Shown: positions 9,733 through 50,803 of the stretch, piece after piece | How positions within the stretch are numbered: position 1 is the stretch's first letter | Layout of the letters: each line of letters begins with the position of its first letter | Sequence record: PP430345 | Source: Escherichia phage vB_EcoM-LTH01 | Reading direction: 5' to 3' (one strand) | DNA: 64,000 nucleotides | Made by a program: the position numbers and the translations under genes | The notes under the pieces: model-generated | The model's input: the letters and a program-made list of their open reading frames with translations, nothing else | Databases searched by the model: none | Told to the model about the DNA's origin: nothing

Positions 9733-10040
9733 CTTATCCTACGGTCACACAAGTCTGACCATCTATCTCTGAGCAAGGGATTTCAAAATGTCTCCCGTCC
9801 CCAAATACATCTCGCCACATAGTCTATTCGGAAGCGGGAGTCTATGCACACCCCTTGCGGTAAGTGACCTCACTTTGAGATCAGCATCTTCCTTATTCGA
9901 CGAGTTAAATTCTCTTTAAGGTAGCCAGTGTTCGCAGCACTAACTATGAGGTATCCGTAAGATGATTTCAGTCATCTACCGAAAAATTACACCAAGCAAC
10001 TACCTTAAAGAGAACTTCTTAGTAAAGGCCCTTGCGAGCC

Positions 10041-10421
10041 TTAATCTTCACCTTCTGCCATTTTATACTCACGAATCTGAGTAGTTAATGGAATAGCATC
10101 TTTAAATGCATCAGAAGGGCCTTGATGAGTTTCTGAATTTGCAGAAGTAGTTCCTCCTGCCAGATCCTCTTCATTATCTTCCATTGTGTACAGATTGTTT
10201 GCCTTTTCAGCTTGCTCAAGAATATACTTCGCAGTAGTTTCTTTAACTTTCTCTGTACCGGAAGTCAGTAGACCTTCCAGAGTTTTAATTGCTTGAGGAG
10301 TAAGTCTTGCAAACTCGGAACGAGCATGAAGAATTGCTCTCTCAGTATTGATTGCAATGCTTTCCTCTGTAGTAGGCCGACCGCGTTTTCGAGTAACGAT
10401 TTCAGCTTTAGCCATAAACAC
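10041..10421 (-). CDS. hypothetical protein with AT-hook-like KRGRP motif
   Basis: 126-aa ORF inside the tRNA region; N-terminal RKRGRPTTEE. Confidence 0.4.
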   Translation of the reverse strand: MFMAKAEIVTRKRGRPTTEESIAINTERAILHARSEFARLTPQAIKTLEGLLTSGTEKVKETTAKYILEQAEKANNLYTMEDNEEDLAGGTTSANSETHQGPSDAFKDAIPLTTQIREYKMAEGED

Positions 10422-10607
10422 CTCAATTCAGTCGATATAACTATATTAGCAGTATAATAGGATTATGTCAAGAACTTATTGAAATGTATTAAGAAATGAA
10501 ATGGGGGTGCGCCGTTTCTGCTGTAATCTACGTCGTTATCGTTGAGGGAACTCGTAGTCAGGGAACATCAGTCCGACGACTTATCGGGAGCGACCCGACT
10601 TCTTATG

Positions 10608-10682
10608 TGGTGGCCCTGGGTGGAATCGAACCACCGTCTGGCGATTATGAGTCGCTTGCTTGAACCGTCCAGCTACAGGGCC
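10608..10682 (-). tRNA. tRNA-Met (anticodon CAT)
   Basis: Acceptor GGCCCTG/CAGGGCC, anticodon loop CTCATAA, T-arm GGTGG-TTCGATT-CCACC, CCA encoded. Confidence 0.75.
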
Positions 10683-10697
10683 TGTATTTAAAAGAAC

Positions 10698-10782
10698 TTA
10701 GCGCGGGAGGAAGGACTCGAACCTTCATACTCCAATTACTCGATTAACGACGGTTTAGAAGACCGTTGAGATACACCCGCGC
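10698..10782 (-). ncRNA. tRNA-like element (Arg-TCT-like anticodon arm) lacking a recognisable D-arm
   Basis: Closing 10-bp stem TTAGCGCGGG/CCCGCGCTAA, canonical anticodon arm ACGGT-CTTCTAA-ACCGT, T-arm GAAGG-TTCGAGT-CCTTC, ~24-nt insert before T-arm; no 3' CCA encoded. Confidence 0.3.
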
Positions 10783-11093
10783 TAAATTCTCTTGTGGGTG
10801 GTGACAGGTTTTGGATATTTAACGACAGGATAACCTTAAACCTCGTCATCATGACAAGGGGTACACCGTAAAAGATTGTCGTGGTATTAAAACTATAATG
10901 ATCCGTGGATCACTAATCAGACGATCTTCGACGGCTCCCCGATATACACAGGGATGGACTGGGCATCCCATTTAGTCGCAGTCAACCAAAAGCGTAAATC
11001 GCGGCGGTGGTATATTGGTTCCAACATATATTTATCCACCCAGCCTTCAAGATGACTAATCTCTCAGGCAACAAAATAATCTTACATATTTAA

Positions 11094-11276
11094 TCAGCTA
11101 TTGTCAACAGGTTTTTTACCATTAATGCAGAGATTACACATCACTGATCTCTTTGGTCCTAAAAACCTGTAACCGCAAACAAAACACTGACAAGTGTAGC
11201 CTTTTTGTTTTTCATGGTTGCGAGGATCATCGAAACTTAGAGATTCAAAGGTCTGGTCTTTCATCATACATCCCAA
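11094..11276 (-). CDS. small Cys-rich zinc-ribbon-like protein
   Basis: 60 aa with CQCFVCG...CNLC pattern. Confidence 0.35.
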   Translation of the reverse strand: MGCMMKDQTFESLSFDDPRNHEKQKGYTCQCFVCGYRFLGPKRSVMCNLCINGKKPVDNS

Positions 11277-11371
11277 TTCTCCTCGTTAATAATTCCTTCT
11301 CCGAATCCTACGAAACCATCAAATTCGTCTTTCATTAACCTTCTCCGTATCCAATCATGTATCTTCTCCTA

Positions 11372-11590
11372 TTACAGTTTAACAACACTAACGCTAAAGC
11401 CAGGTATGGTTTTACACTCAGCTTCCATAGATTCAAGAGTCCCTTCAACAAGTTCTTTTTCTACAGCTTCGAAAATCTCTTCGATGCTCAAGCCGGACTT
11501 TTCCATCTTAGCTTTTAACATCTCTTCCATATCTTCGTTAGTGTAGTCAATTTCATAAGTAACCTTGAGTTCTACAACCTGTTTAGTCAT
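11372..11590 (-). CDS. hypothetical small acidic protein
   Basis: 72-aa ORF in tightly packed leftward operon. Confidence 0.4.
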   Translation of the reverse strand: MTKQVVELKVTYEIDYTNEDMEEMLKAKMEKSGLSIEEIFEAVEKELVEGTLESMEAECKTIPGFSVSVVKL

Positions 11591-11807
11591 TGGCGATCTC
11601 CGAAACGGTAACTTCAGTAGTTAACCCAGGGAATTCTGAATCATCATTAGGGAACTGTTCTACAAACCCCTCAAGAAATTGCTGCGGGAATGTCTTGTAG
11701 AGTTCTTCAACTGTAATACCTTGACGCTCAGAAGCTTCTTTCATTTCTTTGCTAAGAGCTTCATTAGTCTTATCTACGGTAAAGTTCAATGTAATGCTAA
11801 ATTTCAT
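11583..11807 (-). CDS. hypothetical small acidic protein
   Basis: 74-aa ORF, overlapping start/stop with neighbours. Confidence 0.4.
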   Translation of the reverse strand: MKFSITLNFTVDKTNEALSKEMKEASERQGITVEELYKTFPQQFLEGFVEQFPNDDSEFPGLTTEVTVSEIAND

Positions 11808-33630: not shown

Positions 33631-33972
33631 ATGAAGATTTGGCTTGATGATTTGAGAGATCCGAAAGATTACGGGCATGATGATGCCACCTGGTTTAAAA
33701 ATTCTGACCAGTTTATCGAGTTCCTTGAGGACCCTAATAAAATGTATCGTCGGGTAACAGAATGGCATTTCGACAATGACCTCGGTGAAGATTCAAAAGA
33801 AGGTTACCGCTGCTTAGAAATGTTAGAAGAAAAGCTTGTGTTTGGCAAACCGATCCTGTATCCTGCTGTTCTGTTTGTTCACACTTCAAATCCGAGTGCC
33901 GCACAAAAGTTTATGGCAGCAAAGGAAGTCTTTAAGCGATATGGGATTGAAATTTTAAGAAATAACTATTGA
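33631..33972 (+). CDS. hypothetical protein
   Basis: 113-aa ORF with GGAGG RBS. Confidence 0.45.
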   Translation: MKIWLDDLRDPKDYGHDDATWFKNSDQFIEFLEDPNKMYRRVTEWHFDNDLGEDSKEGYRCLEMLEEKLVFGKPILYPAVLFVHTSNPSAAQKFMAAKEVFKRYGIEILRNNY

Positions 33973-36502: not shown

Positions 36503-37255
36503 ATGCAACGTCATACTAATCGTAAATCTCGTCAGGATCGTCGTGAAGAGAAGCGTTCAAAAGGCCGTCAGGTAACACCTAAAGCATATGAAGAGTTGAA
36601 AAAACCTATTACTCCAAAGAACCGATTCCAAAAGGAATTGTTATCCCTGGTTAACGAGAAGGAAGTTGTTTTCGTTAACGCTCCGGCGGGTACAGGTAAG
36701 ACATTTGTCATTATGAGTACCGTTATTGATTGGCTGAAGCAAGGTAAGATTGAAAAGATCGTCCTTACTCGACCAACATTGGGAATGGGGAACAGCCTCG
36801 GGTTACTACCTGGGACTATCCGTGAGAAATTCGAGCCTTTCCTTCAGGCACTTATTCAGGTTATTCAGCAACGCTACGGTCACGGTTTCTTTGAAACTCA
36901 GTTGGGTTGTGGTAACATTGAATTTGTTCCTCTGGAATATATCCGTGGACGTTCTTTCGATAATGCGGTTGTTATTGTCGATGAGTTTCAGAACACAGAT
37001 GAAGATACGGCTTACACGATTATGACTCGTAAAGGTGAAAGTTCTAAGCTGTTCTGCTTAGGCGATATCACACAGAACGATATGCGTAATCGTGAAACTG
37101 GATTAGAATGGGCAATCGAATTCATTGATCGTCATGAACTTTACGACTTTGCTGACTATGTGGAAGCAACAAGTGAAGAAATTGTCCGTAGTCCATTCTG
37201 TAAGGCAGTTGTTAAAGCTCGTGAAAGGGATCTTAAAGGAGGTAATTTAGTTTGA
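36503..37255 (+). CDS. phoH: PhoH-like ATPase
   Basis: Walker A VNAPAGTGKTF; PhoH-like downstream motifs. Confidence 0.8.
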   Translation: MQRHTNRKSRQDRREEKRSKGRQVTPKAYEELKKPITPKNRFQKELLSLVNEKEVVFVNAPAGTGKTFVIMSTVIDWLKQGKIEKIVLTRPTLGMGNSLGLLPGTIREKFEPFLQALIQVIQQRYGHGFFETQLGCGNIEFVPLEYIRGRSFDNAVVIVDEFQNTDEDTAYTIMTRKGESSKLFCLGDITQNDMRNRETGLEWAIEFIDRHELYDFADYVEATSEEIVRSPFCKAVVKARERDLKGGNLV

Positions 37256-41223: not shown

Positions 41224-42069
41224 ATGGAAGAAATCGTAATGAATGGTCCGGCAAAAAACATTTGGGTGTCTCCAGTAACTTCTAACGATTGGCGTATTTA
41301 TGTTACGGATCTGCACAATTCACCTGAAGCACATATCGAGGCTGTTGACCTGATTCGTTCAGCACCAGAAGGTGATATTGTAAATCTGTACATTACTTCT
41401 TGCGGTGGTTATTGTGATATCGCAGATATGTACATGACAGCGATCTCTGAAGCTAAGGCGACTGTTGTGACACACGGCATTGGTGAAGTGGCAAGTGCTG
41501 CAACAATGATCTTCTTATCTGGTCATGTTCGAATTTGTCGTCCAGGTTCTCATTACATGTTTCACAACGTCCAGATGAGTATGGGTGGTGACTCGGCGCT
41601 GGTATTTAAACGTAGCGATTTCTACAAAGACCTGTTCAAAGAGAAATACTACGATCTGTACAAGGGTGTTATGACAGAAGATGAACTCGTTGAACTGTTT
41701 GATCGTGCTGGCGAAATTTACTTCACTTCCTCTCAGATGCAAGCCCGTTTGACCGCTGAAGATGAAGCAATTAAAAAGCAAATGGAAGCCGATCAACAAA
41801 ATACAGGGGGGATTAAGGTTGAAGGGTCAATCGAATCGAGTGATGTTGATGATGCGAAGGAAATCGGAGAGGGAGAATTTGAAATCGTCCTCGACGAAGG
41901 CTACGCCAAAAAATTCAACATCTTTACTCTTAACCCGCGAGACTTTGACGAGTACAACCTCGACGAACTAGACGAGATTGCGGAATGTTTCGGTGTTGAA
42001 CAGTACGTTTATTATCGTGACGAGTTAATTGAACAGATCATCACTGCGGCGAAAGAAGGGGGCAAATAA
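41224..42069 (+). CDS. ClpP-like serine peptidase (S14 family)
   Basis: GEVASAATMIFLSG and MFHNV matching ClpP Ser/His regions; acidic C-terminal extension. Confidence 0.6.
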   Translation: MEEIVMNGPAKNIWVSPVTSNDWRIYVTDLHNSPEAHIEAVDLIRSAPEGDIVNLYITSCGGYCDIADMYMTAISEAKATVVTHGIGEVASAATMIFLSGHVRICRPGSHYMFHNVQMSMGGDSALVFKRSDFYKDLFKEKYYDLYKGVMTEDELVELFDRAGEIYFTSSQMQARLTAEDEAIKKQMEADQQNTGGIKVEGSIESSDVDDAKEIGEGEFEIVLDEGYAKKFNIFTLNPRDFDEYNLDELDEIAECFGVEQYVYYRDELIEQIITAAKEGGK

Positions 42070-42071
42070 GA

Positions 42072-42581
42072 GTGGCAGCATTGAAACCTAAAGCAGAGCG
42101 CCGTGAAAATGATCGCTATGAAACTCCGAAATGGGCAGTAGATGCTTTCTTGAATTTAGTTCCAATCCGTCAGGATTGGACTTATCTGGAACCTTGCAGA
42201 GCCTCTGGAAGTTTTTATAATGAAATGCCAATTGGTTCAGCCTGGGGAGAGATTCAAGAAGGTGTTGATTATCTTGCAACTAAATACAATAAGGTAGATT
42301 GTGTGTTAACTAATCCACCTTACAATTTAGCTCAAGAGTTTGTAGAAAAAGCGCACAAGGATGCTGATGTAGTGATCATGCTTCTTCGTTTAGGTTTCCT
42401 TGAGAGTACCAAACGTGTTGAGTTCTGGAAGCAATACCCTGTTGATCACTTAGTTACTTTATCTAAGCGACCTTCTTTTACTGACGATGGTAAAACAGAT
42501 GGTGCAGCATATGGTTATTTTATTTGGGATAAAAAAGGTAAACTTGGTTTAACAAAACCTTTTTACTGGATTCACCCTTAA
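42072..42581 (+). CDS. small putative N6-adenine DNA methyltransferase
   Basis: EPCRASGSF (motif I-like) then LTNPPY (motif IV); only 169 aa. Confidence 0.4.
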   Translation: MAALKPKAERRENDRYETPKWAVDAFLNLVPIRQDWTYLEPCRASGSFYNEMPIGSAWGEIQEGVDYLATKYNKVDCVLTNPPYNLAQEFVEKAHKDADVVIMLLRLGFLESTKRVEFWKQYPVDHLVTLSKRPSFTDDGKTDGAAYGYFIWDKKGKLGLTKPFYWIHP

Positions 42582-42587
42582 ATTTAA

Positions 42588-42613
42588 AGGTCACCTTTGG
42601 GTGGCCTTTTTTA
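42588..42613 (+). terminator. rho-independent terminator
   Basis: GGTCACCTTTGGGTGGCC hairpin then T6. Confidence 0.65.
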
Positions 42614-42641
42614 TTGACTTGAATTCATGGATGTGTATAAT
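42614..42641 (+). promoter_or_regulatory. sigma70-like promoter
   Basis: TTGACT, 16-bp spacer, TATAAT. Confidence 0.55.
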
Positions 42642-42666
42642 GATAGTCATCAACTAGGAGAACATA

Positions 42667-42996
42667 ATGAAATATTACATTTACTTTCGAAGAGTGTTTG
42701 GTATCAAGACAAAGAAATTAGAAGGCTACGAGATGAAGGTCACCCTTGAAACTCTCAACAACCTTGAAGATTACGATGTTATTCCTGTTGCACCAAAGTC
42801 AGAAGATGAGTATAATCGTTTTGAAAGGATGCTTAAGTTAGTTGAGTGTCCGATCGATAATATTTCTTTTGTTAAGCAAGACCCGCTTGAAATCATCAAC
42901 TATCTTCGTGGTCAAAAGCAAGACATTAAGAGAAATACAAACTGGAAAGAAGAAATAAAAGATTGGTCTTTAAACTTAAGAGGGGAAAGAGTATGA
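42667..42996 (+). CDS. hypothetical protein
   Basis: 109-aa ORF with AGGAG RBS. Confidence 0.45.
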   Translation: MKYYIYFRRVFGIKTKKLEGYEMKVTLETLNNLEDYDVIPVAPKSEDEYNRFERMLKLVECPIDNISFVKQDPLEIINYLRGQKQDIKRNTNWKEEIKDWSLNLRGERV

Positions 42997-43157
42997 CTAG
43001 AAATGGTAGTTCAGCATACGAGAAGGGCCGAGCAGCCGGATTCAAGTTTGGGATGTTCAAGAGAAACAACCCGTATGATCCAAACACCATGCCGGAGCAA
43101 TTTCAAGATTGGGAATCAGGATTTACAAAAGGGTATCAAGAAAAGGGGTGGTTATGA
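42993..43157 (+). CDS. ribosome modulation factor (RMF)-like small protein
   Basis: 54 aa from ATG 42993; GRAAGF...NPY...QDWESGF parallels E. coli RMF RGYQAG...CPY...QWLGGW (recalled). Confidence 0.35.
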   Translation: MTRNGSSAYEKGRAAGFKFGMFKRNNPYDPNTMPEQFQDWESGFTKGYQEKGWL

Positions 43158-43198
43158 GTGGATATGTGGGGATGGAAATAATAGGAGAAGAGAGAGTA

Positions 43199-44449
43199 AT
43201 GAAAGTTTACTTGGTAGGTGGCGCAGTTCGTGATGAACTGATGAGTGTTGAAAGTAAGGATCGGGACTATGTAGTCGTCGGCGCGACCCATGAAGAAATG
43301 ATTGAAAAGGGATTTACTAAGGTTGGTGCAGCTTTCCCTGTGTACCTTGAACCAAACACAAAAGAAGAGTACGCTCTTGCTCGAACGGAAAGATCAACAG
43401 GTCCTGGTTATCACGACTTCGAGGTTGTGTTCTCTCCCGACGTTACAATTGAACAAGACCTGATGCGAAGAGATTTGACCATTAATGCTATTGCCAAGGA
43501 TCTTTCTACGGGTGAAATTATTGACCCTTGCGGTGGTGTACTCGATATTGAACTTCGTCGGTTACGTTGTGTATCCACTAAAGCATTTATCGAAGACCCT
43601 TTACGTGTATACCGATTAGCCAGATTACATGCCAGATACGGCGGCGAGTTTACAATTGATCCTGAGACTTGGGGAATGTGCAAGGATGTTGATTTAAGTG
43701 CATTGCCAAAAGAGCGTAAATTTGCAGAGATTAAGAAATGCTTTAGTGATCAGTCAGAAATGAATAAACCTTCGGTAATGATCCGTATGTTGACTCAACT
43801 GGGAGAATTTCCTGAGCTTGTGGATTTATACGATGTTGTTCAACCCAAGGAGCACCACCCTGAAGGTGATGCATTTGTTCACACTTTACTTTGCATGGAT
43901 TATGCCCAAGCGACTCGTGCAAGTGAAGCTGTGAAGTGGGCAGTTCTGTGTCACGACTTAGGGAAATGCATTTATTGGTTAACAGGTAAATTGCACGGGC
44001 ATGAAGAACATGGTATCAAGTTGACTGAACAAGTTTGCGATCGCTTTGGTGTTCCTAACAATTGGAAGAAGTTAGCTTTAGCTGTAACTGAGCACCATAC
44101 ACGACTTCACCGTATCAAAGAGATGAAGCCAAAGAAAGTTTACGACTTGTTGGTAGCCTTACGTGGTGAAAAGGACCAGGCATTCCTTTCTGAGTTTATT
44201 GACGCTTGCATCTGTGATGCTCGTGGTCGTGGCCCTGAAAAAATGTTTGACAACTACACCCAGCCTTTGGTATTATTCTCAGCACTGGCGGGGATTGTTC
44301 AAAACAGCGTTGCAATCTCAAAAGAAAGTAAAGAGATTTCTGAAAGATTTGCTGGACGTCCAGAAGAGATCAAGAATAGAATCCGAAATGTAAAAGTAAG
44401 GTACGTTACACAATACATCGATAAGATGAAGGAGAGTGAAAATGGTTGA
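43199..44449 (+). CDS. cca: tRNA nucleotidyltransferase (CCA-adding enzyme) with HD domain
   Basis: MKVYLVGGAVRD head motif, HD-domain histidines (CHDLGK); start at ATG 43199 after AGGAGAAG. Confidence 0.8.
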   Translation: MKVYLVGGAVRDELMSVESKDRDYVVVGATHEEMIEKGFTKVGAAFPVYLEPNTKEEYALARTERSTGPGYHDFEVVFSPDVTIEQDLMRRDLTINAIAKDLSTGEIIDPCGGVLDIELRRLRCVSTKAFIEDPLRVYRLARLHARYGGEFTIDPETWGMCKDVDLSALPKERKFAEIKKCFSDQSEMNKPSVMIRMLTQLGEFPELVDLYDVVQPKEHHPEGDAFVHTLLCMDYAQATRASEAVKWAVLCHDLGKCIYWLTGKLHGHEEHGIKLTEQVCDRFGVPNNWKKLALAVTEHHTRLHRIKEMKPKKVYDLLVALRGEKDQAFLSEFIDACICDARGRGPEKMFDNYTQPLVLFSALAGIVQNSVAISKESKEISERFAGRPEEIKNRIRNVKVRYVTQYIDKMKESENG

Positions 44450-44765
44450 AGGTTATTTGATCGGTTGTCTTATTAGTTGCCCACTTTGGTTCTTACTGAT
44501 CAAATTACGGCAGAAGGGTTTTAACATTCCGTTCCCCAAGGATAGTGAAGACCTGTATATCCTAGAACCCCTGAACAATGAAAATGTAAATTTACGTATG
44601 GTCATGGTTGGTTGGCTATGTGCAACATTCTTCTGGTATCTTGTTTACCCAATTATTATCTGTGTTGCAATTGGGTCGTACTTGGTGTTCGGTATAAAAA
44701 GTTTATGTGGCCTTACTATAGGGAATGATAAATTACTAACTAAGATCTTTGGGGTTAAAAAATGA
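44436..44765 (+). CDS. small multi-pass membrane protein (paralogue A)
   Basis: 109 aa; WFLLIKLRQKGFNIPFP; paralogous to next gene. Confidence 0.5.
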   Translation: MKMVEGYLIGCLISCPLWFLLIKLRQKGFNIPFPKDSEDLYILEPLNNENVNLRMVMVGWLCATFFWYLVYPIIICVAIGSYLVFGIKSLCGLTIGNDKLLTKIFGVKK

Positions 44766-45082
44766 CAAGTTTATTAACGTATATTTTATGTTGCATTATA
44801 AGTTCTGCCGCTTGGTTCTTGTTAATCAAGCTTCGCCAGGGTGGGTTTCGTATCCCTTTGCCAGAAAACAGTAACTTACTCGACCCTTTAAATCACGGAA
44901 ATGTTAATTATAAACTCCTGATGCTAGGTTGGTTAATAATGACTGTATTCTGGTTTGTAGGGTGGCCTTTCTTGATTTTGTTTTATGCTCTTGCGTGGAT
45001 TGTTTATTCAACTATGGTTGTTTATAATCTAACGATTGGTAATGAAAAGTTTGCAAAACGAATTTTTGGAGGTAAGAATTGA
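44762..45082 (+). CDS. small multi-pass membrane protein (paralogue B)
   Basis: 106 aa; WFLLIKLRQGGFRIPLP; same architecture and LTIGN(D/E)K...IFG tail as paralogue A. Confidence 0.5.
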   Translation: MTSLLTYILCCIISSAAWFLLIKLRQGGFRIPLPENSNLLDPLNHGNVNYKLLMLGWLIMTVFWFVGWPFLILFYALAWIVYSTMVVYNLTIGNEKFAKRIFGGKN

Positions 45083-45534
45083 AAACTCGGATGTACGTAT
45101 TGGTAAACAGCTACATGATGGGAATCCAAGCAGGTATCCAAGCAGCACATGCAGCAGCAAACCTTGTAGGTCATTATGGCTTTGCCTATGCCGATCGATA
45201 TGATGACAGATACAACCTTGTAGATCAGTGGCAAAGCAAAGACCAAACAATGATCTTGTTGAACGGAGGCTATCAATCGAAGATGCTTAATTTTGCAGAA
45301 GGATTTTTAGCTCCAAACATAGAGAAGATTCCTTACGCATTTTTCTGCGAGGAGAATGATTCTTTGAATGGTGCACTTACGGCTATTGCTTTTATTCTTC
45401 CTCAACATATGTGGGATGTTAAGTTAGTTGATGGTCGTTGTCCTCTTTTCTCTGATACAATCGATCATAAGTATACGCAAAAAGAAATGGACTTTATCGA
45501 AGCATTTAAATCTTTCAAGCTTAAGCAGGGGTAA
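45079..45534 (+). CDS. peptidyl-tRNA hydrolase, PTH2-family-like
   Basis: RMYVLVNSYMMGIQAGIQAAHAAA parallels PTH2 [25 protein letters not shown]; QWQ...ILL follows as in PTH2. Confidence 0.45.
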   Translation: MKTRMYVLVNSYMMGIQAGIQAAHAAANLVGHYGFAYADRYDDRYNLVDQWQSKDQTMILLNGGYQSKMLNFAEGFLAPNIEKIPYAFFCEENDSLNGALTAIAFILPQHMWDVKLVDGRCPLFSDTIDHKYTQKEMDFIEAFKSFKLKQG

Positions 45535-45536
45535 CT

Positions 45537-45935
45537 ATGAAAGTTTCTGAATTGATTGAAGAGTTGCAGAAGTGCCGACCAGATGATAAGGTGTCCATCC
45601 CTGTTGAGGTAGGGCATGTAACAATTGGCGGGACACCACGCCGTGAAGTAGAGGCAGTGTACAGAGGATTTGACTGGGACAGCAAGCAAGTATTTTTGCA
45701 TATTTGTGCAGATGAACGCTTGACAGTAATGTCTAAAGAGGAGTATATTGAACTCATCCGATACAAGCAGTTGGTTAGCGGAATGCGTGGTAAGCAGGAC
45801 ATTGAGCATCTGTCGGATGTATTTGTGAAGAAAGACTTTGTTATCGAGCGCCTCCAGCGCTTGTCACACGTCGAAGAGTTAGAAACTTTCGAGATCTCGA
45901 ATCTCATTTCTGAAATTATTGAGGAGAAATTATAA
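45537..45935 (+). CDS. hypothetical protein
   Basis: 132-aa ORF. Confidence 0.45.
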   Translation: MKVSELIEELQKCRPDDKVSIPVEVGHVTIGGTPRREVEAVYRGFDWDSKQVFLHICADERLTVMSKEEYIELIRYKQLVSGMRGKQDIEHLSDVFVKKDFVIERLQRLSHVEELETFEISNLISEIIEEKL

Positions 45936-46330
45936 TGACTGCACCAATTTTTGAATACGTTACACTGATCTCTTTCTTTATCTTGGGGCTGATTATCCAG
46001 ATAGTGGCAGTTGCCTATTACAATCTGAACATCGATACCATGAAAAATAAAATCGTATATCAGAAAAAGAAAAGTGTAATTGGTTATTTGTTTACATTCC
46101 TTCTATCAGGTTTTGCAATGTACCTCTCATACTCTCTGATGCTTTGGGCGGGTAATGTTTCAGATATTGCCACCGCGATTTTAGTGATTCACTGGACTGG
46201 TGTAATTTATAGTACAATGATGTGCTTTAAGAAAAAGCTTAAAATCACCAGTCATGGACTTTATGGGAGCTTCTTTTATACGTTGACACTTGTTGTGTTG
46301 ATGATCATTTATGGTGTGAAATGCCTATAA
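45935..46330 (+). CDS. hypothetical 4-TM membrane protein
   Basis: 131 aa with four hydrophobic segments. Confidence 0.45.
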   Translation: MTAPIFEYVTLISFFILGLIIQIVAVAYYNLNIDTMKNKIVYQKKKSVIGYLFTFLLSGFAMYLSYSLMLWAGNVSDIATAILVIHWTGVIYSTMMCFKKKLKITSHGLYGSFFYTLTLVVLMIIYGVKCL

Positions 46331-46420
46331 ATAAAAAAGATTGCACAAGCTGCGTAAACTTTATAAAGATTAAACAGGCCAACTGGGTTGGCTTGTGTGA
46401 CTTACATGATTGGAGGATAA

Positions 46421-47548
46421 ATGGAAAATTCAGTTGTGAGTGCTGGAAAGGTAAAAAGTATCGTAGAGAAGATGGAAAAGCATCCAGACGTAGCAAAGGT
46501 CTTGATGTTGAGTCTGGCAGGATCTCATGCGTATGGTACGAATAACGAAGGCAGTGATATTGATATTCGTGGGGTTTTTGTTGCAACTCCAAATGTGGTT
46601 CGTACCCCATTCAAAGAGGTTACTGAATTAAACATCCCTGGTGAAGAGGATGCCAAGATCTACGAGTTGGGAACTTTCCTTCAACTGTTTTCGAAGATGA
46701 ACCCAAATATCATTGAACTGGGTTTTACTGATCCGAAAGCCACATTGTACGAGCACGAAGCTTGGAAAGAGATGAAAGAACATTTCTACTCCTTACTGTC
46801 TCGTGAAGTTGCATTTCGCTTCAGTGGTTATGCAATGTCTCAGTTAAAGCGGATCAAGGGTCACAACAAACACATTAATAATCCGCAACCAAAAGAGCCA
46901 CCAACTCAATTTGACTATTTCCGTCTGGTGCAGAGCTATCTCGGAGAAGGTGAGTTGAAGTATGAAGACTTTGTTCGTAAATTTAAAAACATGGAAGGCT
47001 TCTGTACTCTGGTTCCTTACGGTGGTAACATTTACGGTGTTGTAGAAGATCGTAGTGAAGATGTTCAACCAATGTTTAATAAAGATGGTTCTATCCGTAA
47101 GCTGGATTATGAAGAAATCCCAGAGGAGGTTAAAAGAGGTAAGACACTGATGATTGTTAAGTATTGTGCAGACGATCATAAATGGGCCAAGGATAAACAT
47201 CACAACTACTGGGAGTGGGTTAAGAATCGTAACGAGAAGCGTCATGAACTGGAAGAGAAGTTCGGTTACGACACTAAACATGCTATGCATTTGGTCCGGC
47301 TTCTTCGGATGGGTGAAGAAATCCTCACAGAAGGTAAAGTTTTAGTGAATCGACCAGACGCTGAAGAACTCCTCGCAATCCGAAATGGTGAATACCGCTA
47401 TGAAGAAATTGTTGACTGGGCTGAAGAAAAAGATAAAATGATCACAGATGTTCTTTATAAGCAATCGAGCTTACCGAAGAAAACAGATCTGAAGATTGTT
47501 GAAAAACTTATTCTGGAGGCACAAGACAAGGTATGGAAGGAAACCTAA
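46421..47548 (+). CDS. Pol-beta superfamily nucleotidyltransferase (substrate unknown)
   Basis: GSHAYGTNNEGSDIDI (GS-x9-DxD) near N-terminus; 375 aa with alpha-rich C-terminal region. Confidence 0.5.
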   Translation: MENSVVSAGKVKSIVEKMEKHPDVAKVLMLSLAGSHAYGTNNEGSDIDIRGVFVATPNVVRTPFKEVTELNIPGEEDAKIYELGTFLQLFSKMNPNIIELGFTDPKATLYEHEAWKEMKEHFYSLLSREVAFRFSGYAMSQLKRIKGHNKHINNPQPKEPPTQFDYFRLVQSYLGEGELKYEDFVRKFKNMEGFCTLVPYGGNIYGVVEDRSEDVQPMFNKDGSIRKLDYEEIPEEVKRGKTLMIVKYCADDHKWAKDKHHNYWEWVKNRNEKRHELEEKFGYDTKHAMHLVRLLRMGEEILTEGKVLVNRPDAEELLAIRNGEYRYEEIVDWAEEKDKMITDVLYKQSSLPKKTDLKIVEKLILEAQDKVWKET

Positions 47549-48021
47549 TCTATGAAAAAATAATCACTGCTCTGAACATGGATGTTCAGCGAGAAAGATT
47601 TTTCGTTATCCGATGGATTGAGGAAAGATTAGCAAAAGATCAAGATAACGAAAAAGAATTGATAGAGGAAGTTACTGTAAGACTTACTGAGGAGTTTTCT
47701 TACAAGGTAAGCAACGGTATAGTTCAAAACGTGATTTTGTTTTCCGAGATAGATGACTTCTTCATGGAGAAAGATAAGCCTACGATCGATGAACTTAAAC
47801 TTCTTGAAGCTTCTATGCCAAAAATGTTCGCTTGGTTAAGTAGACTCTGTGTTGAAATACAGGAGGCATTTGATCATCCTCACTCTTGCAGTATAGACTA
47901 TCATCCTCGTGAGGCTGTTTGTAGTGGACAAGGGTGCGGAAGGATAGGTTTTGTAAACTACAAAGATTCAGAAACCAATTGGCAATTCTTCTGTGGAAGA
48001 TCTCCACGGTGTTGCCCATAA
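47533..48021 (+). CDS. hypothetical protein with C-terminal Cys/His cluster
   Basis: 162 aa; HPHSCS...CSGQGCG...FFCGRSPRCC. Confidence 0.4.
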   Translation: MEGNLIYEKIITALNMDVQRERFFVIRWIEERLAKDQDNEKELIEEVTVRLTEEFSYKVSNGIVQNVILFSEIDDFFMEKDKPTIDELKLLEASMPKMFAWLSRLCVEIQEAFDHPHSCSIDYHPREAVCSGQGCGRIGFVNYKDSETNWQFFCGRSPRCCP

Positions 48022-48034
48022 GGGGAGAGGAAAA

Positions 48035-48538
48035 ATGAAAATTTTAAAATTACTAACGAAACTCCATAACGAAAATAAGGTTATCGAATTTCATACGGAG
48101 CAAGAACTCAACTTCTTCGGAAGTTTCAGTACAGAGGACAATCTTGTCGAAGGATTTTTTAAATTTAAAAATTTCGATACCCTCTTTGTTGTGGAGTCTT
48201 TAGAATACATTGTGTATTTCGAAGGTGTTTGGCGTTTAGCTGCTGGAAAATTTCGTGTTGTCGGACATGAAGAGATCGAAGAACAAAAACCAGGTTATCA
48301 TCTGGATACTTTCCCTCGTGGAGAACTTGGAGAGATCACTAAGATTCAAGAAGAACTTGATGAACTTAAGGATGCAGCCAAACAAAAATGCAAGATCATG
48401 GAGTTGGTAGAGCTTTCTGATCTGGTCGGTGCTATGGAAGCCTACCTGAATAAGCATCATCCAAACACTTCACTGGAAGACCTGATGGTTATGTCAAAAA
48501 TCACTAAACGTGCATTCCAGAATGGTAAGCGAGGCTAA
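48035..48538 (+). CDS. hypothetical protein (weak MazG-like helical motif)
   Basis: Start at ATG 48035 after AAGGGGAGAGG; IQEELDELKDAAKQ...ELVELSDLVGAMEAYL. Confidence 0.35.
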   Translation: MKILKLLTKLHNENKVIEFHTEQELNFFGSFSTEDNLVEGFFKFKNFDTLFVVESLEYIVYFEGVWRLAAGKFRVVGHEEIEEQKPGYHLDTFPRGELGEITKIQEELDELKDAAKQKCKIMELVELSDLVGAMEAYLNKHHPNTSLEDLMVMSKITKRAFQNGKRG

Positions 48539-48539
48539 A

Positions 48540-49118
48540 ATGTCAAACATTGACTTCACATTATTTATTGATGCTCATAGTTGGTGGAAATGTAAAGGTT
48601 TCAATGATAAGGTTGTCCCAAGCTATGTAGATGATGAAGCTATGGACCATACATGCCCCGAAGATGTTACTGATCTTCGCATTGTCCAGAACGGGAAATA
48701 TGCAGTGGCTTCAGCAGAGCAATCATTCCTTCAACTCGACAAAGAGGGGAAGTTGGAAGATGGCAGTTGGATGGCTGTGACTCCATGCTTTCGTGATGAG
48801 ATGGTTCTTGATGATATTCATTTCAATATTTTCTTAAAGATGGAACTGTTTAGAAGTGCCAGTAGTAAAAAGAATGCAGAGAAGATTTCTCACGAGATCG
48901 CAAAAGATGCCATATCGATGTTTACCCTCTTAGGGATTCCTCGTGACGTACTCTTTTTAGTTAAGACTCCGATCGGTTACGATGTTTATTGTGACGATAT
49001 GGAGATTGGGTCCTACGGTGCTCGAAAAACACTCACTGGTAAATGGTATGCATACGGAACTGGCCTGGCTGAACCAAGGACTTCGATCGCGATTCAAAAA
49101 TATCGAGGAAATGAATAA
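48540..49118 (+). CDS. hypothetical protein
   Basis: Start at ATG 48540; contains WMAVTPCFRDE. Confidence 0.4.
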   Translation: MSNIDFTLFIDAHSWWKCKGFNDKVVPSYVDDEAMDHTCPEDVTDLRIVQNGKYAVASAEQSFLQLDKEGKLEDGSWMAVTPCFRDEMVLDDIHFNIFLKMELFRSASSKKNAEKISHEIAKDAISMFTLLGIPRDVLFLVKTPIGYDVYCDDMEIGSYGARKTLTGKWYAYGTGLAEPRTSIAIQKYRGNE

Positions 49119-49280
49119 AATTTCACATTAAGGTATACCCTATGGGTCAGATCTGGTCCATAGGTATTTTCTATGTATTAAAATCGATTTAAGTTATTTA
49201 AATACTTTTTTGAAGTCTTGTTGTAAAAATTAACAACATAGTGTTCATGACCGATCTTCGCTGTTGTATTTTTTCATAAT

Positions 49281-49778
49281 ATGATAAAATGTGTTCAGCT
49301 TAGTGGAAGGATGGTCATTATGTACTTTACATATGTAAGTCAACTCCCTATGTTAGCTGACAACGTGGAACTAAATTCTGGAAAGAGATTGGAGTTTTTT
49401 GACGGATTCGTCAGAAGGGCCAGTCCCGATCAGGAAGGATTTAGAGCATACGTTTTTTATGACAAGTTCCGTTCGGTCAGTTATCGGGTGACAAAGGATG
49501 GTCTTCTCATAGAAAGTTATGATGGTAAAAAGTATCACAGCAGCTTTGTCGCAAACACAGAAGGTACATTTAAGTACACACCTTTTGCGGAAAATGCTGA
49601 AGATATCCATGTTAACTCTTTCATTATTTTGACAAACAAGATGGAGAAGGAGTACAGACGCAGATCAACTTTCATGGGAAAACTTAAGCGAGTAACCTCT
49701 GACCCCATTATGATAATTTTTGTTGCAATTGGATTTCTGTATGCTATAGTTACTGCATTCGTGGTGATTAGTAGCTAA
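49281..49778 (+). CDS. hypothetical protein with C-terminal TM anchor
   Basis: 165 aa; C-terminal IMIIFVAIGFLYAIVTAFVVI. Confidence 0.4.
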   Translation: MIKCVQLSGRMVIMYFTYVSQLPMLADNVELNSGKRLEFFDGFVRRASPDQEGFRAYVFYDKFRSVSYRVTKDGLLIESYDGKKYHSSFVANTEGTFKYTPFAENAEDIHVNSFIILTNKMEKEYRRRSTFMGKLKRVTSDPIMIIFVAIGFLYAIVTAFVVISS

Positions 49779-49784
49779 CTTTAG

Positions 49785-49818
49785 GCCAGTCACCGAAAGG
49801 TGGCTGGCTTTTCTTTTA
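49785..49818 (+). terminator. rho-independent terminator
   Basis: GCCAGTCACCgaaaGGTGGCTGGC hairpin then T-rich tract. Confidence 0.6.
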
Positions 49819-49829
49819 TGGGGGTTTTA

Positions 49830-50351
49830 ATGAGTAAACGTAACATTGAGAATCATGTTCTGAATGCGTATGGTAAAGGTGCTCGTTGGATTGGTTGGGA
49901 TCATTGGATCAAGCACCAGCCTTTCTTTAAGGCGGCAGAAAAGAAAATTGAAGAGTCTGTTGCAGTTGGGAATCGCAAAAGCATCTACGTTTATGCGATA
50001 TCTGAATCAAATTGGTCAACTCCTGCAATAACTTTGTATCTTGATGGAAACACAGGAGAACTGGAATGTGTCAAAATCCTGAGCGTAGATGATGTTTACA
50101 CGGTATTAAATATCTATCGTGATTCAACTGTATTGATTAAAAGAAATGAGGCCCAAGTGGTGTTTGAGGACTTATTTCAAAACCCTACGCATCCGACAGA
50201 TGAAGAACTCGATCTTTTCACGGCGTTGTATGGGGATGATGATATTCTTCTTGACTTGAACCCAATGTTCTTCCAGCGTGTTCAACATCTGAACAAAGCT
50301 GCTGTAAAGAATGCTATGAAATTTATTGTTGACGAGGACATACCATTTTGA
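49830..50351 (+). CDS. paralogous-family small protein (member 1)
   Basis: Start set to ATG 49830 downstream of terminator; carries FEDLFQNPTHPTDEELDLFTALYGDD. Confidence 0.45.
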   Translation: MSKRNIENHVLNAYGKGARWIGWDHWIKHQPFFKAAEKKIEESVAVGNRKSIYVYAISESNWSTPAITLYLDGNTGELECVKILSVDDVYTVLNIYRDSTVLIKRNEAQVVFEDLFQNPTHPTDEELDLFTALYGDDDILLDLNPMFFQRVQHLNKAAVKNAMKFIVDEDIPF

Positions 50352-50803
50352 AAACTAAAGAGATAATCGAGAGATTGAGCAGGCAGTGGACTTTTAATGC
50401 CCTAGGTAAAAACAGATACCGGAACAATATTTTTAAGAAGGGTGAAAAATGGACTCAATCCGAAGGAATGTCGGCATCCGTGAGTTTTAGAATCCCACTG
50501 GACAAGGCTGACAAAAGGATAAACATAAGTTCAAACAGGCATCTTTTTCAATGGAGAACATCCAAAGATTCTATTGGGAAACCTGATCGTTTCGTTTTTG
50601 TTACTTATGGCGACAAGAGCGGGACAAAACGAATAGTCCTTGAAGAGTATTTCTTCGATCCAACAGATATACTTGAAGAGGAGATAGAGATGTTTGAAGC
50701 GTTGTTCCCTGAAATTTCAAGGTATATCCTTGCAATGGGGGAAGCTTTAGATGAGGCAGAGATAAAAATTCAAGAGAGGGTAGAAAATGTCATTGTACGA
50801 TAA
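50348..50803 (+). CDS. paralogous-family small protein (member 2)
   Basis: EEYFFDPTDILEEEIEMFEALFPE. Confidence 0.45.
   Translation: MKTKEIIERLSRQWTFNALGKNRYRNNIFKKGEKWTQSEGMSASVSFRIPLDKADKRINISSNRHLFQWRTSKDSIGKPDRFVFVTYGDKSGTKRIVLEEYFFDPTDILEEEIEMFEALFPEISRYILAMGEALDEAEIKIQERVENVIVR

Follow-up and report, generated by a model that had tools for sequence, protein, structure and literature searches.

Escherichia phage vB_EcoM-LTH01 (PP430345) carries a run of closely packed genes, several of which are predicted to act on the ends of tRNA or other RNA molecules, and this locus raises the question of whether they work together during infection or merely lie together in the genome. The genes belong to a sequenced stretch of 64,000 nucleotides, here called the window, to which all positions refer unless another record is named. 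A sequence-only reading of the window had proposed a tRNA-maintenance kit built from a CCA-adding enzyme, a PTH2-type hydrolase, an RMF-like peptide and a Pol-beta nucleotidyltransferase. The CCA-adding enzyme, a PTH2 fold and an RlaP-family nucleotidyltransferase are found in one transcription unit, while the RMF-like element proved unsupported. Taking this into account, we consider it moderately probable that the operon is a loose toolkit of independently mobile tRNA/RNA-end modules, which would keep the tRNA pool usable during infection.

The operon and its predicted tRNA/RNA-end modules

Twelve open reading frames (ORFs), all on the + strand, follow one another from 42667 to 49118, with junctions that overlap or nearly abut (Table 1). 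The stretch running from the sigma-70-type promoter to the intrinsic terminator behind the last ORF is one operon. The cassette of terminator and promoter that had been reported in front of the unit is present, and the end previously given for the unit, 49118, agrees with the present analysis; its true start lies one ORF before the 42993 proposed earlier. Counts of promoter and terminator sites across the whole region show no excess over shuffled controls, so that only the strong intergenic sites carry weight, and promoter-like matches inside the operon, at 44247 and 45720, were disregarded for the same reason. Rfam detected no structured RNA in 42000-50500. The five tRNA genes, which had been counted as partners of the unit, are not part of it, because 33 kb separate them from it and they are on the other strand.

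Table 1. Features of the operon and of the window discussed in the text (aa, amino acids; TM, transmembrane)
Feature	Position	Strand	Remarks
Five tRNA genes (Gln, Gly, Pro, Tyr, Met)	9235-10682	-	
PhoH	36602-37225		
Intrinsic terminator closing the upstream ClpP-like/methyltransferase unit	42586-42609	+	10-pair stem, then T-run
Sigma-70-type promoter	42614-42641	+	TTGACT-16-TATAAT; 11/12 matches; directly after the terminator
First ORF of the unit, 109 aa	42667-42996	+	phrog_12008; stop overlaps next start (ATGA)
54-aa peptide, weak and unproven RMF-like similarity	42993-43157	+	phrog_26347
Predicted class II CCA-adding/repair enzyme with C-terminal HD domain, 416 aa	43199-44449	+	NF008137, PolyA_pol, HD, phrog_2244
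Small membrane protein, paralogue A	44436-44765	+	phrog_17692
Small membrane protein, paralogue B	44762-45082	+	phrog_17692; 43% identical to A
Divergent PTH2-fold protein, 151 aa	45079-45534	+	phrog_3668 'hydrolase'
ORF, 132 aa	45537-45935	+	phrog_12566
Multi-pass membrane protein, ~4 TM	45935-46330	+	phrog_12739
RlaP-family Pol-beta nucleotidyltransferase, 375 aa	46421-47548	+	PF10127 8.8e-19; phrog_388 4e-79
ORF, 162 aa, Cys-rich C-terminus	47533-48021	+	phrog_12113
MazG/HisE-like protein (all-alpha NTP pyrophosphohydrolase-like)	48035-48538	+	phrog_6408 1.6e-36; conserved core residues 87-166
Minimal class II aminoacyl-tRNA-synthetase catalytic core, SerRS-like, 192 aa	48540-49118	+	
Intrinsic terminator ending the unit	49139-49164	+	11-pair stem, then T-run; 21 nt past last ORF
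Second strong terminator	49783-49810		

The product of the CCA gene aligns with positions 1-408 of the 409 in NF008137 (5e-114), although its 381.3 bits stay below the equivalog cut-off of 451 in spite of this full-length alignment. It also matches PolyA_pol, the Pol-beta head (PF01743, 3.6e-19), the HD domain PF01966 (1.9e-8, residues 228-316) and phrog_2244 (9e-132), and its translation shows the motifs GGAVRD, DRD, RRD and EDPLR. The full-length CCA-adding tRNA nucleotidyltransferase with HD domain of the sequence-only reading is thereby borne out, and the protein is firmly predicted to be a class II CCA-adding/repair enzyme of the E. coli type. With E. coli Cca (NF008137) it shares the full-length alignment, the Pol-beta GGxVRD/DxD/RRD/EDxxR motifs and the C-terminal HD domain; it differs in being phage-encoded and in scoring under the equivalog cut-off. 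Since the 3' CCA is already encoded in all five phage tRNA genes, such an enzyme would be dispensable for the maturation of phage tRNAs, which points to a role in repair.

Downstream of two membrane-protein genes lies the gene of the PTH2-fold protein. The PTH2 alpha/beta fold was recognised through fold comparison, which was needed here, as a profile of the family gave only noise against PDB sequences; a single-sequence search of the same set gave no match. Compared with archaeal and eukaryotic PTH2 (PF01981; 1wn2, 1xty), the phage protein is 13% identical and has an additional C-terminal region of ~40 aa, and its family possesses, unlike PF01981, invariant NGG, EE and SLNGALT motifs of its own.

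The third module, previously described as a Pol-beta nucleotidyltransferase, can now be named. It reaches 68.6 bits against PF10127, for which the gathering score is 23, and the Pol-beta catalytic motif AGS-x11-DID is visible in its translation, so that, judged by its sequence, it is a clear member of the RlaP family with an intact catalytic motif. Its single-sequence search against PDB sequences returned no match. According to a 2025 preprint (PMC12776372), RlaP adds one or two nucleoside monophosphates to the 3'-OH of damaged RNA, and NrdC.11 of phage T4 belongs to the family. The characterized RlaPs (PfRlaP/PaRlaP; PMC12776372) are found in RtcB or RNA-ligase operons, in contrast to the present gene: the phage has no detectable RNA ligase, and RlaP is accompanied here by the CCA enzyme, the PTH2-fold gene and the gene pair described below. 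A ligase search, made with an Rnl1-type query only, found no Rnl1 match either in the window or in phage UPEC06, the closest complete relative. As that genome has no annotated or detectable ligase, PNK or RtcB, RlaP is unlikely to serve anticodon-loop ligation, and it may work at 3' ends beside the CCA enzyme, or together with the host RtcB. One UPEC06 gene is labelled 'RNA ligase 1 and tail attachment protein', but the corresponding ORF (window 33631-33972) has 113 aa, too short for Rnl1, and was not counted; it sits between RNR subunit genes, and the label is probably wrong.

The MazG/HisE-like protein and its minimal synthetase partner

Where the sequence-only reading saw three unknown genes there are in fact four, two of which can be identified. 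The first encodes a MazG/HisE-like protein. Its score, 15.3-15.7 bits, is below the Pfam gathering score of 21.3, and PRA-PH is matched, also below threshold, by 31 of its 41 relatives. HisE chains are among the top PDB matches of the family, in which a KxxEExxE...ELxD metal-binding motif (K19, E22, E23, E26, E42 and D45) is invariant. The second encodes a minimal aminoacyl-tRNA synthetase (mini-aaRS), with the class II catalytic fold and its motifs 1, 2 and 3. This protein consists of the core only, without the domains for tRNA recognition (the N-terminal arm of SerRS or an anticodon-binding domain), and obtains 20.4 bits against the serS model TIGR00414, whose cut-off is 301.

In having motifs 1-3 and no anticodon-binding or tRNA-arm domain, the mini-aaRS resembles the truncated class II paralogues (SerRS core; amino acid:carrier protein ligases such as Bll0957, 3mey; HisZ; EpmA/GenX; AsnA). 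Its motif-2 loop is shortened relative to SerRS, and this loop is shortened too in the amino acid:carrier protein ligases. In contrast to all of these paralogues, it is much smaller (~190 aa), phage-specific and obligately paired with the MazG/HisE-like protein, without the context of a carrier protein, HisG or EF-P.

The two genes adjoin in 78 of 80 phage loci (L065-L144), sharing a strand in every case, with either gene first and a median gap of 7 nt; in one case they are fused (L124:1001-1789). Long N-terminal extensions of the MazG-like partner in jumbo-phage contigs gave no match in Pfam scans. The two proteins form a tightly coupled pair, probably an enzyme that adenylates amino acids, and no description of this gene pair was found in the literature searched. 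The only clue to its predicted role is the company it keeps, namely RlaP, Rnl1 and the PTH2-fold gene. In ~10 of 75 loci outside the Vequintavirinae, RlaP or Rnl1 is no more than a few kb from the pair; in five loci Rnl1 is at 8 kb or less. In one jumbo-phage contig (L118:6067-11334), RNA ligase 1, two small ORFs, the mini-aaRS, the MazG-like gene and RlaP are contiguous and an RNase T-like exonuclease follows RlaP; the ligase is of the T4 RNA ligase 1 type (PF09511, 5e-26). This arrangement places the pair, in that phage, inside a bona fide RNA-repair cluster.

Linkage in other phages and the readings of the operon

A 7.2-kb region containing the operon is 94-95% identical to its counterparts in Escherichia phages A7_1, A73, W70, A5-4 and UPEC06, of the genus Septuagintavirus, subfamily Vequintavirinae. 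In Vequintavirinae-like contigs the ClpP-like, methyltransferase, CCA, PTH2-fold and RlaP genes are colinear, with 40-66% protein identity. Because colinearity is expected within a subfamily, contigs outside it are more informative, and linkage was surveyed there within a range of 6 kb, with 53 PTH2-fold loci and 75 mini-aaRS loci serving as mutual controls. Of the 53 PTH2-fold loci, 10 have Thg1 (PF04446, 1.4e-28) nearby and 6, from two lineages, the CCA enzyme; among the 75 mini-aaRS loci the corresponding numbers are 2 and 1. Conversely, RlaP accompanies the pair in 5 of 75 loci and the PTH2-fold gene in none of 53, and in 4 of the 75 loci the PTH2-fold gene itself is found upstream of the pair, at a distance of 1.3-1.7 kb. 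Few of the linked loci are related at the nucleotide level, and gene arrangements vary, with PhoH, the PTH2-fold gene and Thg1 contiguous in some cases and Thg1 upstream or on the opposite strand in others. The contiguous order was seen in one group of large phages (L008, L010, L011, L012, L014 and L028, ~8000-11800), and other arrangements with Thg1 in L018, L025, L041 and L049.

The linkage in unrelated phages, of the PTH2-fold gene with the CCA enzyme and Thg1 and of RlaP with the mini-aaRS pair, favours the proposal of a toolkit. Several facts weigh against it. The PTH2-fold protein obtains 16.6 bits against PF01981, below the gathering score of 23, and the 12 of its 34 relatives that match this family all do so below threshold; thus, the PTH2-like call of the sequence-only reading holds at the level of the fold only. 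The active site of Sulfolobus solfataricus PTH2 is formed by Lys18, Asp86 and Thr90. In an hhalign alignment, Gln17 of the phage protein falls at the essential Lys18 of this archaeal enzyme; in the same register Gln21 falls at Gln22 and His24 at His25, and Glu91 would correspond to Asp86 from the register of secondary structure alone. RlaP stands without its usual partner, as RNA ligase, PNK and RtcB are not annotated in UPEC06. Synteny within one phage subfamily is to be expected anyway, and even there parts are lost singly: the PTH2-fold gene is absent from L066-L068, RlaP from L002 and L069, the mini-aaRS pair from L004-L007 and the 54-aa ORF from UPEC06. Elsewhere, most PTH2-fold genes and most pairs have no repair enzyme within 6 kb. 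The modules can thus be lost individually among Vequintavirinae relatives, and in other phages most copies of each are solitary. Finally, the unit is interspersed with unrelated membrane proteins and unassigned ORFs, which amount to five of the twelve.

The same losses, solitary homologues and interspersed ORFs would be explained if there were no functional unit at all, but a colinear block of accessory early genes, each acting alone in general tRNA turnover, unrelated nucleotide chemistry or membrane remodelling, in a conserved genome order and with a coincidental translation theme. The flanking genes (ClpP-like, methyltransferase, NrdD, PhoH, RNR) belong to the same sort of accessory arm. 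However, unrelated contigs repeat the linkage in various forms (PTH2-fold with Thg1 or the CCA enzyme, pair with RlaP or Rnl1, pair with PTH2-fold), the reciprocal controls are much lower, and the genes here share a single promoter and terminator. The reading without a functional unit is regarded as rather unlikely.

In the loose toolkit that is preferred here, the CCA-adding/repair enzyme would rebuild the 3' CCA, and its HD domain could, by analogy with E. coli Cca, remove 3'-terminal phosphates. The PTH2-fold hydrolase is predicted to strip a peptidyl group, an N-blocked aminoacyl group or a similar ester off the tRNA 3' end, the clearing of esterified 3' ends having been proposed for phage PTH2 by Iyer et al. 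2021 (PMC7824862). RlaP would extend the 3'-OH of damaged RNA by one or two nucleotides, and the coupled pair would contribute its probable amino-acid adenylation. Together these activities would most likely preserve a usable tRNA pool when tRNAs suffer damage in the course of infection; the parts behave as tools that can work alone and do not form an obligate pathway. What the sequences show is the identities and folds of the genes, the signals of the operon and the linkage across lineages, whereas substrates, cooperation among the parts and a part in countering host defence are inferred. An anti-defence purpose is plausible, given the tRNA-tail-cleaving Cas12a3 and the acceptor-stem-modifying MenT systems (PMC12851939 and PMC10435456, respectively).

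A stricter scheme, which we think quite unlikely, would convert the toolkit into a ligase-independent pathway for the rescue of tRNA 3' ends. In it, the PTH2-fold protein would free the blocked end, the HD domain would take off its phosphate, RlaP would put back any nucleotides missing beyond the CCA, and the CCA enzyme would rebuild the CCA. The pair would be an undescribed two-subunit phage RNA-repair enzyme, with, for example, an anticodon-independent re-charging or acceptor-end-marking activity.

In its full form, the sequence-only reading would make the operon an integrated kit that includes a ribosome-hibernation peptide of the RMF type and counters host toxins, be it by CCA trimming, nucleotidylation of acceptor stems or acetylation of aminoacyl-tRNA that these act. 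The existence of the Cas12a3 and MenT defences and the CCA encoded in the phage tRNA genes agree with this idea. The ORF of the 54-aa peptide has a good Shine-Dalgarno sequence and a start that overlaps the upstream stop (ATGA). RMF is the sole consistent Pfam or NCBIfam match for six of the eight members of the peptide family (best E 3e-4, never at threshold), and the peptide shares with RMF (PF04957) a similar length and a colinear G-x3-G...P-Y...W-x2-G-[FW] pattern. Nevertheless, the peptide itself obtains 14.6 bits (E 0.034) against a Pfam gathering score of 27.9, and 14.7 bits against an NCBIfam cut-off of 40. Its family profile found no RMF chain in the PDB at E up to 10, hhalign of the family with E. 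coli and Vibrio RMF gave a probability of 5.3%, and a single-sequence search of PDB sequences found no match. The peptide lacks the basic N-terminus and the Cys of RMF and is only weakly basic (net charge +2 versus +7 in E. coli RMF).

Moreover, the family is tiny and dispensable, and the ORF is missing from most related, Vequintavirinae-like contigs. A word-indexed search recovered two relatives, and an exhaustive HMMER search of 1.8 billion proteins five small ones; with so few relatives no bridge to RMF could be built. In UPEC06 (L001, ~6400; 94% identical overall), ~200 bp corresponding to window 42993-43198 are gone, the entire ORF included, and the CCA gene is annotated as a fragment beginning at the deletion junction. 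The RMF-like assignment of the sequence-only reading is therefore not established, and 'RMF-like' denotes an unproven resemblance. As no gene of the operon is tied to a particular toxin, this integrated kit is considered very improbable. Equally improbable is a routine role instead of repair, in which the CCA enzyme, and with it the rest of the cluster, would help to mature and express the tRNAs that the phage encodes. The phage does have five tRNA genes, and genome papers usually offer this explanation; but all five genes already encode their CCA and lie far off on the other strand, and tRNA maturation involves neither RlaP nor the PTH2 fold.

Neighbouring genes and relation to known phage toolkits

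Within the operon, the tandem membrane paralogues A and B (E 1e-31) and the four-TM protein, considered a multi-pass membrane protein, agree with their earlier description. The Cys-rich C-terminus of the 162-aa ORF that separates RlaP from the MazG-like gene may bind zinc, and a related contig has this ORF twice (L065, 7004-7717 and 11021-11575). The operon is part of a long + strand arm whose genes are early ones or concern nucleotide metabolism (RNR, NrdD, ThyX, DNA ligase, PhoH). Directly upstream (41224-42581) are a ClpP-like protease of 281 aa and a small DNA methyltransferase, a block colinear with the operon across Vequintavirinae-like contigs; in other phages ClpP-like genes recur at 5 kb or less from the PTH2-fold gene (11 loci). 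Downstream, a single-gene unit (49281-49778, phrog_12909) encodes a 165-aa protein with a C-terminal TM segment, flanked by the last two terminators of Table 1. Outside the window, a small RelA/SpoT-like protein, labelled 'GTP pyrophosphokinase', is encoded at 118229-118792 of the UPEC06 record. The family includes some toxins that modify the CCA end of tRNA, a possible connection with the tRNA theme.

The idea that this combination had not been described is only narrowly true. RlaP, CCA-adding enzyme, Thg1, PTH2 and PhoH have been grouped as an RNA-repair and ribosome-rescue toolkit of jumbo phages (Iyer et al. 2021, PMC7824862, sec. 3.4.9), and the genome paper on RaK2 names a CCA enzyme and Pth2 in one list; Vequintavirinae genome papers mention at most the tRNA nucleotidyltransferase. 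The operon shares with the jumbo-phage toolkit RlaP, CCA-adding enzyme, PTH2 and a nearby PhoH, and the same proposed purpose, that is, the restoration of tRNA ends and the release of peptidyl-tRNA after nuclease attack. It differs in that the phage has a genome of ~145 kb and is not a jumbo phage, the genes are packed in one operon, the PTH2-fold family is divergent, and RNA ligase, PNK and Thg1 are not present in the genome. The MazG-like/mini-aaRS pair, part of the cluster here, is not mentioned in the main text of PMC7824862. Four things are new: the genes are packed into a single operon of a 145-kb coliphage, no ligase is detectable, the PTH2-fold family is divergent and recurrently linked to Thg1 and the CCA enzyme, and, above all, there is the pair, which is apparently undescribed and widespread.

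Among the major targets of bacterial antiviral immunity is tRNA, attacked by anticodon nucleases, retron effectors, PARIS and the tail-cutting Cas12a3; tRNA repair in phages other than T4 is poorly known. The operon offers a compact and genetically tractable coliphage model, with E. coli K-12 as host, of three to four candidate tRNA-end enzymes and no RNA ligase. If it is true that the pair acts on tRNA, it would represent a new type of enzyme for RNA-repair systems, as well as a natural example of a near-minimal class II synthetase core.

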